From a virus: 36,426 nt of DNA. The notes below the pieces were generated by a model. It made no database searches. It was not told the origin of the DNA and worked only from the letters and a program-made list of their open reading frames with translations. The stretch lies in UHGV virus genome UHGV-0192694; one strand, 5' to 3'. A program made the translations under genes and the position numbers. Within the stretch, counting starts at the first letter, position 1, and each line of letters opens with the position of its first letter. This document shows positions 6,893 to 28,342 of this stretch, in pieces.

Positions 6893-8338
6893 TTATTTTT
6901 CTAATTTCTCTACGCGCTTAATTAAATCGTCTAACGCCTTTTTCATCTCAGTTTGAGCAGTACCTACAGATTCGACTGTATTTGTTAAATCACTTGCTAA
7001 TTGTTTAAAGGCTTCCGTCGATTCTGTCACGGTTGTTGATAATTCACTGGTTAAGTCTTCCAAAGAACTAACTTTACTACTTTGAACAGATAAATCATTG
7101 TCAAATTCTTCCTGTCTTTTTATCAACTCTGATATGTTTTGAACTCCTGCCGTCGCAAATTTTTTTACGTTTACTAAATTGGATTGAATAGCTTTTATTT
7201 CGTTTTGATAATCGGTCAGTTTTTTCTTTTTCGAACCAATAGTCAAAGTAACCTTTTGCGGTTCTAAAATACTAAATTTTTTCTCAATCACTTGTAATCG
7301 TTCTACAGCATAAATAAATTGATTATCTACTTTATAACTGTTTCCTAAAGTGATTAATTCATACCGTTTATCCAATAGCCCTAACTCAATGGCTTCAACT
7401 GTCCAAGTTACCAGCATCAAGCTTTGGTCTTTTAGCCATTGCAACCCTCGACGTTTTAAAATTGATGGGTCTTTGACATTTGAAAATTCTACAATGCCCG
7501 TGTTTAATCCAAATTTTTTGATTAACGCTTCATCATCAAGGTAATTCTTACCGCCATTTACTTTTTCGATGGTGTATTTAGGTCGTGAAAAATCTGTTCC
7601 CACTTCAATATCAGTATTTGACGTATCTTCAATATCTTGACCGACGGGCACAATCCTTGTAAACAATTCAGAAATATCAATATCTCGAGTAGCACTTTTT
7701 AGATTTTTGGTTAACTGTAAAGGAGTTTCACTGTTCACACCATAATTAGATAGATAATCTAAATAATTTATATTTCCAACGCGTCGAAGTGTTAACGTAC
7801 CGCCCAGCCTATCCAACAATTTTTCTTTAATGGTATCAGCTGTACTTTGATAGCCTAATCCTCTTAGCAAGTCCCCATTATCTACAACATTCACTTCACC
7901 AAGCCGAAACTGCTTATGCGCTTCAACTTGTTTATTGTGTGCATCGAGTATTTTTTGTAAATAAGCAGATACAGTCATCCGTGTTGGTTTCATATAGGTT
8001 TGAACAGAATCATATAAAAAAGCTTTCTCATCCTCCGCTAAAAGAGTTTGAGAAAAGCTTCCTGATGCTTCCATTTTATTCGTGATTTTAGCAACTCTAC
8101 CATAAAAAATTTCTTTATTTCTTGTAACATCCAGAATCTGGATAAAGTGAATAATCGGCTCAATCTTTTGATAGTATTTATTGTTAATATTAAAGGTAAA
8201 TTCAAAAGTAGAAATTCCTAATCCGTTAAGCGATAAATATACTTCACTATCTTTGATTTTCTCACCATAGCTATATGGCTCATGAACAATCTTTGGATTC
8301 TTTCTGTTCGGATTATCAAACAATAATACTCGATACAT
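6893..8338 (-). CDS. tail-associated protein Tal (prophage tail endopeptidase-family N-terminal domain)
   Basis: 481 aa directly after Dit; no C-terminal lysin domain evident. Confidence 0.6.
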   Translation of the reverse strand: MYRVLLFDNPNRKNPKIVHEPYSYGEKIKDSEVYLSLNGLGISTFEFTFNINNKYYQKIEPIIHFIQILDVTRNKEIFYGRVAKITNKMEASGSFSQTLLAEDEKAFLYDSVQTYMKPTRMTVSAYLQKILDAHNKQVEAHKQFRLGEVNVVDNGDLLRGLGYQSTADTIKEKLLDRLGGTLTLRRVGNINYLDYLSNYGVNSETPLQLTKNLKSATRDIDISELFTRIVPVGQDIEDTSNTDIEVGTDFSRPKYTIEKVNGGKNYLDDEALIKKFGLNTGIVEFSNVKDPSILKRRGLQWLKDQSLMLVTWTVEAIELGLLDKRYELITLGNSYKVDNQFIYAVERLQVIEKKFSILEPQKVTLTIGSKKKKLTDYQNEIKAIQSNLVNVKKFATAGVQNISELIKRQEEFDNDLSVQSSKVSSLEDLTSELSTTVTESTEAFKQLASDLTNTVESVGTAQTEMKKALDDLIKRVEKLEK

Positions 8339-24133: not shown

Positions 24134-25051
24134 CTATTTCAGATCCAATGCTAAAATCAATTCGTTATCGTTATAAGCTTGTTCTATTGACATTACCATA
24201 TTTTCAATAGTAAGTTTTCCTTGCTTATTTAAGGGAATCTTATCATCAACATAGATTAACCTATTACTAATTAAATCTATTACTTGCTCCCTGTCTCCCA
24301 CTGTCCCTTTCAAAACCAATTTATCTACATCTTCTTTTTTATTTAAAAATCCTTTACAGTAATTGACAACATTATGAATATTTAACTGTCCTGTATAAAT
24401 TATTTTTTCGCGATTTGCTTCTAGCTTTTCTATAATTTTCTGTTCCTTTTTTGCACTTCTTTTGTTATCTTTCAATTCATTTTCATCTACAATTCTATGG
24501 ATTGCAATATCAATCTCATGGATACTATCCATATGGTTGATATTTTCTAAGTCAGTATTATTGATAATCGTAGCTAATTCCCCACCCTGTTTTCTGGTAA
24601 TCCTGTAAAAGAAAGTAACTAACAAATTCTTTCCTATTCCACTTCTATTTCTCGGAATGATAACCACACCTGTTATTGGATTAACCAAAATTACCGTATC
24701 TGTTGTAGGACCTTCATCACTCGTTTCTGCATAAACACTTCTGCCACTTTGAACAGATTTAGAAATGCTGTTTACAATAGCTTCTTTTTCAATATCTACC
24801 TTTGATAGGCTAAATACCCACACATAACCAGTCGATACCTCTATTTTTTTTATATAACTAAATCCTACATAAATATTTTTGGAGCATTTAACGAAGTTTA
24901 CGTTCGATTCTTGATTATTACGTATATATCTATAATATTCATCGATTTTTTTGTCAAGTTCACTCAAATCTGTTATTATGTCACCTTTTACTATACGTCT
25001 ATACTTAAAAAAGTCGTACGATTTGGTAGTTGTTTTCACCATATAAATCAC
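24134..25051 (-). CDS. hypothetical 305-aa soluble protein (candidate sensor of exclusion cassette)
   Basis: No recognisable catalytic motif; C-terminal charged coiled-coil; strong RBS AAGGAG. Confidence 0.6.
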   Translation of the reverse strand: MIYMVKTTTKSYDFFKYRRIVKGDIITDLSELDKKIDEYYRYIRNNQESNVNFVKCSKNIYVGFSYIKKIEVSTGYVWVFSLSKVDIEKEAIVNSISKSVQSGRSVYAETSDEGPTTDTVILVNPITGVVIIPRNRSGIGKNLLVTFFYRITRKQGGELATIINNTDLENINHMDSIHEIDIAIHRIVDENELKDNKRSAKKEQKIIEKLEANREKIIYTGQLNIHNVVNYCKGFLNKKEDVDKLVLKGTVGDREQVIDLISNRLIYVDDKIPLNKQGKLTIENMVMSIEQAYNDNELILALDLK

Positions 25052-25242: not shown

Positions 25243-25307
25243 ATCATGAATGTAGTAGAAACATCTATTGACGATACTAATTTTATTTAAGTAGCGATGC
25301 TACCTAC

Positions 25308-25378
25308 TGGAACAATAGGACTCGAACCTATACCGACGTTTTTGGAGACCGCTGCTCTACCAGTTAAGCTATGCCCCA
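25308..25378 (-). tRNA. tRNA-Trp(CCA)-like, prophage-encoded
   Basis: RC folds TGGGGCA-TA-GCTT AACTGGTA GAGC-A-GCGGT CTCCAAA AACGT-CGGT-ATAGG TTCGAGT CCTAT-TGTTCCA; closely parallels Bacillus-type tRNA-Trp; two G-U pairs in acceptor, one G-A mismatch in anticodon stem, no discriminator+CCA encoded. Confidence 0.55.
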
Positions 25379-25756: not shown

Positions 25757-26173
25757 TTATCTATAGGCGATTATTTTTCCATTTCGATACGCTTCAGCAA
25801 ATTCAATTAAAGCTTCTGATTTCATACGTTGAATACTTCTTTCAGAATATCCAACTTCTCTAGCAATCTTGTAATTAGAGTAATGATCCTGCACACAAAA
25901 ACTGTAGTGCAGAATTTGTCTACTAGTCAAACTCAAAGCCATAAGTGCAGATAAAATTGCATCTCTTTCTGCTTCTGCATCAGCTAATTGTACCAGTGCA
26001 TCTTCTGTTTTGTTTCCGTGGCTTTGGCTTTTAGGCATTTCTGTAATAATTGGTGATTTTAAATCTATCAAAGAGCGACCAGCTATTCGCTCTAAACGTC
26101 TAAAACTCTTCAACACATTTCTAGCATTCGCTTTTGTTTGTCGAAAATCTACTTCTTTTAACAATAGAATCAA
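25757..26173 (-). CDS. ArpU-family late transcription activator (Alt-like)
   Basis: 138 aa; TTG start with AAAAGGAG RBS; sigma-70 region-4-like C-terminus (YSERSIQRMKSEAL) typical of ArpU/Alt family; located upstream of packaging genes. Confidence 0.7.
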   Translation of the reverse strand: MILLLKEVDFRQTKANARNVLKSFRRLERIAGRSLIDLKSPIITEMPKSQSHGNKTEDALVQLADAEAERDAILSALMALSLTSRQILHYSFCVQDHYSNYKIAREVGYSERSIQRMKSEALIEFAEAYRNGKIIAYR

Positions 26174-26191
26174 GTGAAATCGCTCCTTTTA

Positions 26192-26260
26192 TGGTATAAT
26201 AATTTATAATAAACATATCATCATTTAAGAGTTGCTTAGCGGAAACTAAGTAGCTTTTTT
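26192..26260 (+). ncRNA. short plus-strand transcription unit 1 (extended -10 TGGTATAAT to CGGAAA-loop terminator)
   Basis: TGGTATAAT 26192-26200; hairpin GCTTAG-CGGAAA-CTAAG + T7 at 26233-26260; no ORF. Confidence 0.4.
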
Positions 26261-26295
26261 TATTTATCCAAACATATATAAGAAATGCTTATTCT

Positions 26296-26393
26296 TTGCT
26301 CATCAGCGACTCTATATGATATAAATTATACTAAGAATACTATTCCAATAGCTATTCACTTCTCAGCCAGTCGGCGGAAACCGACTGGCTATT
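26296..26393 (+). ncRNA. short plus-strand transcription unit 2
   Basis: TTGCTC-18-TGaTATAAA promoter-like; hairpin AGCCAGTCGG-CGGAAA-CCGACTGGCT 26365-26390 followed by AUUUAUUUAU. Confidence 0.3.
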
Positions 26394-26588
26394 TATTTAT
26401 CAAAATATTCATCACTCATACATGTTTGTAGTCAACAAATTATTGGTTGACTATAAAGAAAACAATAATAATTCTACAGTATTTTACAATCTTCCATTCG
26501 TTATCTTTCACATCATCTTTATTCATTTGATATTTTCCATCTAATAAATATTTTTGGCATAGAAAGTATTTTCAAATCTATTTTTCAA

Positions 26589-26833
26589 TGGTATAATCAC
26601 TTTAACTTTCTTGGGGATTTTATTTATGAAATAAATTTCCTCCTTTTCTACATTAACTTCTGGTAAACAGTTAATAGTAGTACACGTCTCTACAAGAGAT
26701 TTATTGTCGATTTTTAATCGGCTATTTAATAGCACTTTATTTGGGGAAAGTGCTAACTCACACCTAAAGAACAACTGGCGGAAAACAGTTGTTTCTACCA
26801 CATAAGTCAGCTAGTGGTCAGCTGGCTTTTTTT
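26589..26833 (+). ncRNA. plus-strand transcription unit 3 (about 230 nt structured RNA)
   Basis: Extended -10 TGGTATAAT 26589-26597; internal hairpins GCACTTT-atttgggg-AAAGTGC (26732-26753) and AACAACTG-GCGGAAAA-CAGTTGTT (26770-26793); terminator GTCAGCT...AGCTGGC + T7 (26806-26833); no ORF longer than 2 codons after promoter. Confidence 0.4.
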
Positions 26834-26834
26834 G

Positions 26835-26928
26835 TTGCCTTAAATTTCATAGTAATGTATTATTAATTGTCTCTATCTGAGATGAAAATGTATCTATAAC
26901 TAGCTAGCGGAAACTAGTTAGTTTTTTT
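26835..26928 (+). ncRNA. short plus-strand transcription unit 4
   Basis: TTGCCT-17-TATTAT promoter 26835-26863; hairpin AACTAG-CTAGCGGAAA-CTAGTT + T7 26898-26928. Confidence 0.4.
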
Positions 26929-27080
26929 ATACTATTTTTTATTGGTTTTAAAACTACTTAGCCTTTTTATATAAATGTGAACGTCGAATAATTGAATATT
27001 AAATTCTTTAAATTTAAGCATCTTCTTTACTCGCTTTCTAACCGAATAATTCTCTTTGATCTGTTTACCCGTTTTACCCA

Positions 27081-27488
27081 CTACACTTGTTCCTCCAAAC
27101 TTGTAATTTCTAGTTCTGTTCGTGGTCGCATACTGTACAACTTTTGACAAACCATTACAGCAATTTGACCATCGTTTTTATATAAAATACCTTCGGCAGC
27201 TTCAGTGACTGCTTTGAAATAATTATCCAAGTCAGGTTTCTTATCGCAATATTTCCGCTCTAATTTCACTTCTAAGCGTTTCTTTTTAGAACTTAATGAT
27301 ATTTTAGGGGTAGCGATGTAAAACGTAATATGCGCAAAAATAGCCCCTTTTTCAATCAATTCTGGTTTTGCCTTTTGTTTATAGGCACCCATAGCGCTAT
27401 CTTCATAGGTTTGGACATAATTCCCACGTCTTGCAAACCTCGGGCGACTTTGCAGTTTTCGTTCAATTGGCAGGATAATTCGCATCAT
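27081..27488 (-). CDS. rusA: RusA-family Holliday junction resolvase
   Basis: 135 aa; KKPDLDNYFKAVTEAAEG...NDGQI matches the RusA D-x-D-N / K...D catalytic core. Confidence 0.8.
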   Translation of the reverse strand: MMRIILPIERKLQSRPRFARRGNYVQTYEDSAMGAYKQKAKPELIEKGAIFAHITFYIATPKISLSSKKKRLEVKLERKYCDKKPDLDNYFKAVTEAAEGILYKNDGQIAVMVCQKLYSMRPRTELEITSLEEQV

Positions 27489-28342
27489 TTCCCCTCCAAG
27501 TATTCTTTTATTTGCCTATCAAGTTCAGCTTGCTTTTCTGGTGATAGTTTCTCCTCTTCTTTTTTTGGTTCATTTACCCAATCTGGCAACTTCTCTTGTC
27601 TAACTGGATTATTTGAATATCTTACTTGCGTTGCCGTTTCAGACAAGTCGTATTCATCGTTAAAACGTTCATCACGTATCCAGCGGAACAATTCTTGTGG
27701 ATGATACCAGTCGTTTAATTTGATATACTTAAGATAAGCTTTGTATCCTGTTTTAAACCGTTCGAAGTCTTCATCTGACTTAATTTTCTTTAAGAATTGC
27801 TCTTTGGCTTTTTTCTTATTGGTTTTCTTCGGATATGTTTTCCAAACCTTTTCAAATAATTCAGACATGGTTGAACTTTGTTCAACACTATATATATTCT
27901 TTGTATTATTCTTTGTATTATTAATTAATGTATTATTCTCTGTGAAGTTTTCTTCACTAGGGGTAGTGAAATTTTCTTCATCCCCCTCCTGATGATTTTT
28001 TCCATAGGTGATGAAATTTTCTTCACTAGGGGTGTAAAATTCTGTATCAGTTGGATACGGTAAGATATAGATATGTCTCCGATCTACCATTTTGCTGTTT
28101 GGCTTATAAAAAATTTGCATTTTTATATAGTTTCTTTCTTCTAACTGTTTCAGCCATGAAATAATTGTTCGCTTGCTAACGTTATACAGATTTGCAAAAT
28201 ATTGATTCGTTGCCCAACAATAGCCTTTTTCATTTGCTAATGCCGTTAGCTCTCCATACAATAATTTTGCATTCCCATTTAAGTGGTTATCATAGCGAAC
28301 AATCGCTGGGATAATGGCGTAATATCCTCTATGTTCATTCAC
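27485..28342 (-). CDS. phage replisome organiser / replication initiation protein (DnaD-like N-terminal wHTH)
   Basis: N-terminal YYAIIPAIVRYD...LNGNAKLLYGELTALANEKGYCWATNQYFANLYNVSKRTIISWLKQLEERNYI typical of phage_rep_org_N; internal peptide repeats TPSEENF and NNTKNNTK. Confidence 0.8.
   Translation of the reverse strand: MNEHRGYYAIIPAIVRYDNHLNGNAKLLYGELTALANEKGYCWATNQYFANLYNVSKRTIISWLKQLEERNYIKMQIFYKPNSKMVDRRHIYILPYPTDTEFYTPSEENFITYGKNHQEGDEENFTTPSEENFTENNTLINNTKNNTKNIYSVEQSSTMSELFEKVWKTYPKKTNKKKAKEQFLKKIKSDEDFERFKTGYKAYLKYIKLNDWYHPQELFRWIRDERFNDEYDLSETATQVRYSNNPVRQEKLPDWVNEPKKEEEKLSPEKQAELDRQIKEYLEGK
27895..28045. repeat. iteron-like direct repeats inside replisome-organiser gene (candidate ori)
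   Basis: 2.5 tandem copies of CTTTGTATTATT (27898-27936) plus two 25-bp direct repeats TTCTTCACTAGGGGT(A/G)(G)T(G)AAAATT at about 27950 and 28015. Confidence 0.55.

Follow-up and report, generated by a model that had tools for sequence, protein, structure and literature searches.

A cluster of four small RNA (sRNA) genes occupies positions 26,192 to 26,930 on the plus strand of the virus genome UHGV-0192694, a stretch of 36,426 nucleotides (nt) that is referred to here, at its full length, as the window. The window derives from a temperate phage of Enterococcus faecalis whose nearest deposited relatives are SEsuP-1 (99.4% identity over the small-RNA region) and the phiFL1 group, and on sequence grounds the source phage resembles prophage pp4 of V583 (ef1988-ef2043; PMC3675006). 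The four transcription units, named A to D, lie upstream of and opposite to arpU, and their hairpins carry a common CGGAAA loop on differing stems. In our view the whole is best explained as four sRNA genes in tandem, kin of the E. faecalis sRNA Ref1C, that would act in cis as a brake on ArpU, a reading to which we assign a probability of about 0.6.

Four plus-strand transcription units opposite arpU

The units, their elements and the facing gene with its two promoters are as follows (5′UTR, 5′ untranslated region; TSS, transcription start site).

26192..26265, plus strand: unit A, RNA of ~58 nt; extended -10 element TGGTATAAT at 26192-26200, TSS at 26208
26227-26258, plus strand: hairpin H1 of unit A, loop CGGAAA at 26240-26245, T7 run at 26259-26265
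26317..26457, plus strand: unit B, Ref1C-like; extended -10 element TGATATAAA at 26317-26325, TSS at 26333
26335-26357, plus strand: hairpin 1 of unit B, a 5′ hairpin
26353-26363, plus strand: conserved 5′ motif of unit B, TATTCACTTCT
26365-26390, plus strand: hairpin H2 of unit B, loop CGGAAA at 26375-26380, followed by ATTTATTTAT, a weak T-run
26425-26457, plus strand: degenerate 3′ hairpin of unit B, loop AAATTATTG, lacking a T-run, homologous to the AGTGGTC terminator of intact copies
26569..26835, plus strand: unit C, the sRNA Ref94, ~232 nt; -35 element TTTTCA at 26569-26574, extended -10 element TGGTATAAT at 26589-26597, TSS at 26604
26613-26642, 26648-26680, 26686-26700, 26706-26722 and 26730-26755, plus strand: hairpins 1 to 5 of unit C, which has seven hairpins in total
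about 26769-26794, plus strand: hairpin H3, the penultimate hairpin of unit C, loop GCGGAAAA with CGGAAA at 26779, no T-run
26804-26828, plus strand: terminator hairpin of unit C, loop AGTGGTC, T7 at 26829-35
26835..26930, plus strand: unit D, RNA of ~62 nt; TTGCCT at 26835-26840, 17-nt spacer, TATTAT at 26858-26863, TSS at 26869
26898-26923, plus strand: hairpin H4 of unit D, loop CGGAAA at 26908-26913, T7 at 26924-26930
25757..26173, minus strand: arpU, the gene faced by the cluster, encoding a sigma-70-like late-gene transcriptional activator (TIGR01637, 130.6 bits; PHROG 248; annotated as ArpU in related phages)
26174..26330, minus strand: primary arpU promoter and 144-nt 5′UTR; -10 element TATAAT at 26330-26325, TSS at 26317
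26466..26516, minus strand: secondary arpU promoter, TSS at 26466; its 293-nt leader is antisense to units A and B

Units A, C and D end in a G+C-containing hairpin followed directly by a U-run (T7 in each), the form of an intrinsic terminator, and the H2 hairpin of unit B is followed only by ATTTATTTAT. The statement of an earlier, sequence-only reading of this stretch, that a hairpin and T-run follow each promoter, therefore holds at A, C and D and only weakly at B; in unit C it is the AGTGGTC hairpin that precedes the T-run. The plus-strand units fold better than shuffled controls, with z-scores between -2.2 and -6.7 (unit A, -13.6 kcal/mol, z -3.6; unit B, z -5.8 and -6.7; unit C, -58.6 kcal/mol, z -4.3), and the minus-strand arpU leader gives z -0.04. 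Compensatory changes separate unit C from its phiFL1-type copy.

Transcription of the units in V583

The transcript data considered here are published V583 maps on near-identical sequence and not maps of this isolate. In the differential RNA sequencing (dRNA-seq) TSS table for V583 (Michaux 2020, PMC7724050, supplementary file 2), each start is given with the 51-nt string ending at it, and the promoter strings of the window were searched in that table. The matching promoters are those of prophage pp4, beside EF2024 (ArpU) and EF2025, a 261-nt open reading frame (ORF) that is the 86-aa ORF of the window; a window coordinate equals the V583 coordinate minus 1,926,669.

Unit A, plus strand: window 26208, V583 1952877, value 178, 0 mismatches in the 51-mer
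Unit B, plus strand: window 26333, V583 1953002, value 1602.8, 1 mismatch in the 51-mer
Unit C, plus strand: window 26604, V583 1953273, value 92,897, 0 mismatches in the 51-mer
Unit D, plus strand: window 26869, V583 1953538, value 229, 0 mismatches in the 51-mer
arpU primary start, minus strand: window 26317, V583 1952986, value 23, 5′UTR of 144 nt, 0 mismatches
arpU secondary start, minus strand: window 26466, V583 1953135, value 20.3, 5′UTR of 293 nt, 2 mismatches

The promoter elements that the sequence-only reading had placed at 26192 and 26589 (TGGTATAAT), 26317 (TGATATAAA) and 26835 (TTGCCT-17-TATTAT) all have a matching start: a plus-strand TSS is recorded for V583 7-8 nt downstream of every predicted -10 box, and the sequence there differs from the window by 0-1 mismatch. 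All four units are thus independent transcription units with experimentally mapped 5′ ends in the V583 literature data, and the matches show each to be served by a host promoter of the sigma-A type that is active in the lysogen. In the lysogen, the start values on the plus strand are 8- to 4000-fold above those of arpU.

Among the four, unit C corresponds to an RNA that already has a name. Innocenti 2015 (PMC4408782) described Ref94 as an sRNA antisense to ef2025, and, as judged from the identical 51-mer, unit C is Ref94; for units A, B and D the starts are in the published table. The four starts are absent from the ANNOgesic sRNA table in the portion available to us. The proposal that the stretch encodes plus-strand small non-coding RNAs with promoters and terminators of their own is borne out by the V583 dRNA-seq starts and by the identity of Ref94.

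An invariant loop on co-varying stems

Plus-strand CGGAAA at 26240, 26375, 26779 and 26908 accounts for four of the eight plus-strand copies in 36.4 kb, all within 670 bp. When pairing was followed outward from every CGGAAA on both strands, these four were flanked by 13, 10, 9 and 10 contiguous stem pairs, whereas the remaining 22 copies in the window had at most 5. An enrichment of CGGAAA in hairpin loops, which the sequence-only reading had offered as a check, is accordingly found, with all four cluster copies in hairpins against none of the other 22. That reading had counted five hairpins with the loop; there are four, since its 'CAGCT-type' hairpin at 26804-26828 is capped by AGTGGTC. Nor is the loop a general feature of the host: of 57 CGGAAA copies in 100 kb of E. 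faecalis chromosome, none lies in a comparable G+C-containing hairpin (one is in a 6-pair A/T stem), and none of the 55 terminator-like hairpins there has a CGGAAA loop. The clustering of CGGAAA hairpins is real and far beyond chance.

Fourteen distinct loop-bearing hairpins from the window, other phages and two chromosomes were aligned on the loop for an analysis of covariation. Of the stem cells, 93.6% are paired and 9 of 10 stem pairs have changed on both sides, while the seven nucleotides G-CGGAAA are invariant. None of 500 shuffles matched the observed percentage paired, covariation score or number of doubly changed cells, and 10 of the 500 reached 9 pairs. True mismatches number 3 in the stems, against 12 G-U cells that would read as A-C mismatches on the opposite strand; the plus strand is the selected strand.

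The stems had been described as completely different from one another. They are better described as diverged paralogues than as unrelated, because two sub-types keep their loop-proximal pairs, CT(T)AG-CGGAAA-CT(A)AG in one and CTG/CGG-GCGGAAAM-CAG/CCG in the other. The loop contains GGAA, a tetraloop sequence of the GNRA type, flanked by C and A, and convergence is a poorer explanation of its sharing than constrained descent from a common Ref1C-like ancestor. Plus-strand gene regions of the phage contain no UUUCCG, and the complements of the loop in the phage are cis-antisense sites only; trans targets of the loop inside the phage were rejected on that ground.

A second family of conserved loops was observed in the AGTGGTC terminators, on the co-varying stems cagcT/Agctg, caacC/Ggttg and cagcC/Ggctg, with ATTGGTC in the phiFL1 type. 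Terminators with the AGTGGTC loop are also present in loci L024, L026, L083, L326, L106, L277 and L360.

Relationship to Ref1C

Ref1C (Rfam RF02845) is sRNA_103 of V583 (2405867-2405996); it was discovered by 5′tagRACE and Northern blots, and every E. faecalis isolate examined carries it (PMC3074167). At gathering thresholds, Rfam finds two tRNAs and nothing else in the whole window. With E-value thresholds, the Rfam covariance search that the sequence-only reading had proposed yields a relative, Ref1C, which matches the plus strand at 26730-26836 (40.6 bits, E 2.3e-4) and at 26329-26426 (39.1 bits, E 4.8e-4), both below the Ref1C gathering threshold of 90 bits. Scores against the Rfam model form a series that runs from 149.8 for Ref1C through 93.7 for the phage copy L277 (above threshold), 53.7 for a phage of the L326 type and 49.1 for L106, from the chromosome of another Enterococcus species, to 41 and 39 for the window.

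The consensus of Ref1C has a hairpin with the loop GCGGAAAA and, after it, a terminator with the loop AGUGGUC. Unit C has both, in this order, in its 3′ domain; in unit B the first hairpin is joined by a degenerate homologue of the terminator, and units A and D have the first element only. The L326-type copy shows the former state of unit B, as it combines unit B's 5′ hairpin and TATTCACTTCT with a hairpin AGCCAGTCGG-CGGAAAA-CGACTGGCT and an intact AGTGGTC terminator, the counterpart of which in unit B has a mutated loop and is missing its T-run. A covariance model, R1, was built from seven such units, with units A and D outside the training set. In the window it matches the four units only (unit D, 26.8 bits, E 3.6e-4; unit A, 24.2 bits, E 1.9e-3), and its best match in 100 kb of chromosome has an E-value of 0.16. 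These comparisons show unit B and the 3′ domain of unit C to be diverged members of the Ref1C lineage, significant relatives though not members by the Rfam rule, and units A and D to be minimal versions made of a 5′ tail and the signature hairpin.

The chromosomal Ref1C locus was retrieved from metagenome contigs with a degenerate pattern, a guessed exact 22-mer of Ref1C having found no metagenome match. It is itself a tandem array of an upstream twin, Ref1C and a third unit, sRNA_104, and the published TSSs at 2405737, 2405869 and 2406008 fit this layout. The terminator of the upstream twin reads GATCAGCTGG-CGGAAA-CCAGCTGATC followed by T7. Pattern scans for GGCGGAAAAC-N(20-50)-AGTGGTC in genome contigs and for GCGGAAAA-N(15-45)-AGTGGTC in viral contigs gave, among the matches listed, nearly all chance matches; the real ones among those listed are L106, L277, L314 and L322. 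We also observed a BsrC-like RNA (RF01410, 65.6 bits, threshold 38) opposite sRNA_104, at 7394-7481 on the minus strand of L360, so that the core Ref1C locus, too, has a sense/antisense arrangement of sRNAs.

The window units share with Ref1C the same strand logic, an extended -10 promoter, a 5′ hairpin, the GCGGAAAA hairpin and the AGUGGUC terminator; unit B also has the 5′ motif UAUUCACUUCU, and both loci are tandem arrays. Unlike Ref1C, the window copies are phage-borne, differ in their stems throughout and score 39-41 bits against a threshold of 90. In addition, unit B is without the terminator loop and T-run, unit C has ~125 nt of extra 5′ hairpins, and units A and D have the signature hairpin only.

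Position of the cluster relative to arpU

Unit A is wholly complementary to the 144-nt 5′UTR of arpU. The -10 element of unit B (26320-26325) abuts that of the primary arpU promoter (26325-26330), and the two starts are divergent and 16 bp apart, so that polymerases at unit B and at arpU should exclude each other. The arpU leaders of 144 and 293 nt cover all of unit A and most of unit B and thus overlap them in cis-antisense orientation. For units C and D, an antisense overlap would depend on read-through from rusA, and a terminator scan of the rusA-arpU interval gave zero minus-strand terminators. The earlier suggestion that the RNAs are antisense to the arpU leader and to minus-strand ORFs of 86 and 72 aa stands for the leader and for the 86-aa ORF (Ref94 being antisense to ef2025) and falls for the 72-aa ORF, which lies outside the units.

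This position recurs. Each of the 83 loci fetched with the ArpU protein has TGGTATAAT on the plus strand, 19 nt past the start codon of arpU, and after it a short unit with a terminator that varies among the loci, the loop being CGGAAA, GCAA or GGAA. The order of arpU, unit A and an opposite-strand Ref1C-like unit is found again in a phage group with a 36%-identical ArpU and different flanks, and also in L277, beside an ArpU-like protein (TIGR01637, 36.6 bits, full-length alignment). In three lineages of ArpU, the cluster takes the same place upstream of the gene and runs opposite to it. Since the lytic genes (dnaD-like, rusA and arpU) occupy the minus strand and the integrase/repressor end the plus strand, the four units point the same way as the lysogeny genes and against the lytic ones.

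From the fixed position, the complementarity of unit A, the abutting -10 elements and the 8- to 4000-fold excess of starts, we infer a cis brake on ArpU. In such a mechanism, the promoter of unit B would compete with the primary arpU promoter, convergent (head-on) transcription from the plus-strand units could interfere with arpU transcription, and the unit RNAs may pair as antisense with the arpU leader. Through this restraint of ArpU the late genes would be held silent until induction. The invariant G-CGGAAA loop could serve as a recognition surface common to the family, either in loop-loop contacts or for a common partner. Taken by itself, the claim that the cluster restrains ArpU in the lysogen has, in our estimate, slightly less than an even chance of being correct.

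Several points weigh against this interpretation. The link between the RNAs and arpU expression is deduced from sequence and start sites. Ref1C and the L106 copy reside in chromosomal, non-phage contexts, so that the family has a function independent of arpU. Accessory 'moron' genes often occupy the junction of early and late genes, which makes position alone weak evidence. Cis-antisense action leaves the identical loop on different stems unexplained. As V583 has several related prophages, part of the dRNA-seq signal may come from multi-mapping reads, and the 3′ ends of the four RNAs are predicted from hairpins. Finally, the invariance of the loop is partly by construction, because the hairpins were gathered by a loop search. 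This last point is mitigated by two checks: the loci fetched via the ArpU protein alone already hold seven different stems with the loop, and in an unbiased census of hairpins in those loci CGGAAA is the most recurrent loop on G+C-containing stems.

Antisense brakes are known from other phages, such as lambda paQ (antisense to Q), lambda OOP (antisense to cII) and P22 sar. Like these, the units described here are short RNAs made by host polymerase opposite a key lytic regulator in the lysogenic state, with terminators of their own. They differ in that there are four tandem units, that the target would be a sigma-like late activator, at its leader and promoter, and that the phage is one of a Gram-positive host. 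They differ further in that their family has chromosomal members and in that their regulatory effect is a proposed one.

Minus-strand ORFs over the cluster

Another way to view the stretch is that its true genes are the minus-strand ORFs, namely the 86-aa ORF (EF2025) and a 72-aa ORF, and that the hairpins are incidental to coding sequence. Both ORFs are annotated in related records, and the 86-aa ORF has a PHROG of its own, phrog_35744. The profile of phrog_35744, however, has exactly 86 positions, which suggests a family without length variation, and full-length copies of the 86-aa ORF are confined to sequences that share at least 97% identity with the window. In the phiFL1-type region it is broken into two non-collinear fragments and a plus-strand 'gp33' is annotated instead, while gp33 is in turn broken in the window type. 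The conservation across diverged homologues that would be expected of a protein-coding gene is thus absent from the 86-aa ORF, and the doubt that the sequence-only reading had cast on it is confirmed, in that it is intact only in its own near-identical sequence type. Neither the 86-aa ORF nor gp33 has a Pfam match. The remaining ORF lies outside the four units:

26932-27150, minus strand: 72-aa ORF

Furthermore, the strongest transcript runs opposite to the minus-strand ORFs, and the G-U pairs favour the plus strand. We consider it very improbable that the minus-strand ORFs are the true genes here; the 86-aa ORF and phiFL1 gp33 are probably annotation artefacts over an RNA gene.

Possible alternative functions of the loop

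The constancy of the loop could also reflect docking on the ribosome. The CGGAAA hexaloop would then kiss the apical loop of 16S helix 26 (h26; GGG-UUUCCG-CCC) and tether the sRNAs to the 30S subunit, and in the larger units the AGUGGUC loop would pair with 16S 1020-1027 (UGACCACU, at the h33/h33a junction); such docking might modulate hibernation or 30S function and is compatible with the proposed cis role. The end of h26, GGGUUUCCGCCC in Firmicutes, was checked against the sequence of an E. faecalis rRNA operon and confirmed. Read as its reverse complement, GGGCGGAAACCC, the h26 tip agrees perfectly over 10 nt with H2 and the Ref1C twin and over 8 nt with H1, H3, H4 and Ref1C; AGTGGTC(A) is matched perfectly by 7-8 nt of complement at 16S 1020-1027, and in 23S and 5S rRNA neither loop finds a further match of at least 7 nt. 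Two random 7-mers would both be complementary to 16S in 0.8% of cases (0.44% if composition-matched), and the first target is exactly a hairpin tip. In Grad-seq data (PMC10117718), just 9 E. faecalis sRNAs sediment with 30S, sRNA103 (the Ref1C locus) and sRNA027 being two of them, and the predicted 68-nt pairing of sRNA027 with ef2025 mRNA leads us to regard it as a relative of unit C; the authors of those data, however, gave small ORFs or mRNA association as alternatives for the 30S association (PMC10117718). The h26 tip protrudes from 30S and contacts uS2 of the partner ribosome in the Firmicutes 100S particle (PMC6177447), but it is conserved across Bacilli. The match is, moreover, post hoc and its invariant stretch only 7 nt long. 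GCGGAAA is also the 5′ end of E. faecalis tRNA-Gly(GCC) (L383 1668-1739, minus strand), which has AGUGGUA in its D-loop, and CGGAAA is also present in the A2058 region of 23S; the abundant phiFL1-type terminator loop AUUGGUC has no 16S match, and the two 16S sites are in different subunit domains. To our knowledge, no interaction of this kind between an sRNA and rRNA has been described for bacterial sRNAs. We regard docking as an unlikely account of the loop, and the general proposition that the Ref1C-family sRNAs, prophage copies included, are ribosome-docking RNAs acting via the h26 tip seems doubtful as well. If it were true, a highly expressing prophage could tune host ribosome hibernation or mark 30S subunits. 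Mimicry of a tRNA or T-box was rejected, the GCGGAAA and AGUGGUA shared with tRNA-Gly(GCC) being unfit in order and spacing and judged a coincidence of short motifs, as was pairing of the loop with the anti-Shine-Dalgarno sequence, which would have the wrong polarity.

A protein might equally be what reads the loop. Lambda boxB has a GNRA-like loop that is bound by N, and CsrB and RsmZ present GGA loops. A loop that stays the same while its stems co-vary is the classic mark of a hairpin recognised by a protein, the loop here holds GGA/GGAA, unit C is very abundant (TSS value 92,897), and there are several copies per phage and per genome; the loops could thus be sites for one RNA-binding protein of host or phage, with the cluster acting as a decoy or sponge or being stabilised by the protein. 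The likeness to CsrB, RsmY, RsmZ and boxB lies in a conserved purine-rich GGA- or GNRA-like loop on variable stems. The hairpins are, however, on separate transcripts and not on one sponge RNA, unlike those of CsrB-type sponges, and, unlike boxB, they are on the wrong strand for nut-like sites in lytic transcription of the phage. No candidate gene for an RNA-binding protein lies beside the cluster, its neighbours being arpU, rusA and the dnaD-like gene, and enterococci seem to be without CsrA, Hfq and ProQ (PMC7724050), a statement that for CsrA is taken from the literature with no search made. A protein partner is in our judgement improbable. It is less probable still that the loops have no function of their own and that the units are outward promoter-terminator pairs, as insulators or remnants of duplication, the shared loop then reflecting recent duplication together with a preference for stable GNRA-like terminator loops. 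Of the CGGAAA hairpins in the window, all but H3 are terminators, homologues of unit A elsewhere end in the plain GNRA tetraloops GCAA or GGAA, and one homologous CTAG-stem hairpin has the loop AAAAAA. Yet neutral loops would be expected to diverge first, whereas here 9 of 10 stem positions have diverged and 7 loop nucleotides are fixed in 14 hairpins, including chromosomal copies from two species; the CGGAAA loop is also found on non-terminator hairpins (H3 and hairpin 2 of Ref1C) and is absent from 55 host terminators.

Other features of unit C and of the neighbourhood

Hairpin 1 of unit C contains, at 26610-26634 on the plus strand, GGGGA, a 9-nt spacer and AUG-AAA-UAA, and so a mini-ORF of two codons preceded by a Shine-Dalgarno-like sequence. 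Since the phiFL1-type copy has CUG in place of the AUG, the mini-ORF is probably not functional; it could add to 30S association. Small ORFs as the products of the units were rejected, given that AUG-AAA-UAA is gone in the phiFL1 type and that phiFL1 gp33 is not conserved. Hairpin 5 of unit C (26729-26756) has the form (A/T)TAGCACTTT-N8-AAAGTGCTAA and is perfect in L002 and L003. It is a close look-alike of the CIRCE operator of HrcA (TTAGCACTC-N9-GAGTGCTAA).

Three further candidates for the nature of the units were discarded. For a type I toxin-antitoxin system of the Fst kind, the fstAT match reached just 16.6 bits (E 6.5) and no ORF for a hydrophobic peptide was seen; GOLLD, ROOL or another large phage RNA had no Rfam match; and in a pseudoknot between an upstream ACCAC and the loop GUGGU, the connecting loops would be too short and ACCAC is unconserved in L106, L277 and L326.

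Upstream of the cluster, in the lytic direction, are two genes:

27081-27488, minus strand: rusA, a lytic-direction gene
27485-28342, minus strand: dnaD-like replication gene, a lytic-direction gene

A further plus-strand V583 TSS falls at window position 27736 (51-mer at 27686-27736, identical) and is antisense to the dnaD-like gene (EF2027), so that antisense transcription in this phage extends beyond the arpU leader. Downstream of arpU, the window has a tRNA-Trp gene at 25307-25378 on the minus strand. SEsuP-1 and phiFL1B have a tRNA (Asn according to the SEsuP-1 annotation) at another offset from arpU (L001, L002 1811-1883), and the stretch just 3′ of arpU thus varies among otherwise near-identical phages. 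The second tRNA of the window (Met) is at 1393-1468. Between the arpU-tRNA region and the packaging genes lies an ORF of 305 aa (24134-25051, minus strand), with minus-strand promoters of its own according to the V583 TSS table (EF2022), which may be an accessory or defence gene.

Concluding remarks

The name Ref94 and the Ref1C family were already known, and the published accounts of Ref94 and of the pp4 starts (Innocenti 2015, Michaux 2020) give transcripts and start sites; in the parts of these accounts available to us, the shared loop, the relation to Ref1C and the arpU-adjacent position are not described. As far as the literature compared shows, what is new is the kinship with Ref1C, the constancy of the loop on co-varying stems and the fixed position opposed to arpU. 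For phage annotation, two probably spurious hypothetical proteins, the EF2025/86-aa homologues and phiFL1 gp33, could be dropped.

Enterococci are without Hfq, ProQ and CsrA, and almost no enterococcal sRNA has a known mechanism. The core sRNA Ref1C now has phage-borne relatives, and one unit of the cluster, unit C, is among the most strongly initiated transcripts nearby in the lysogen. If the cluster is indeed an RNA brake on the late genes, it would bear on prophage induction and on cross-interference between prophages in a major hospital pathogen.

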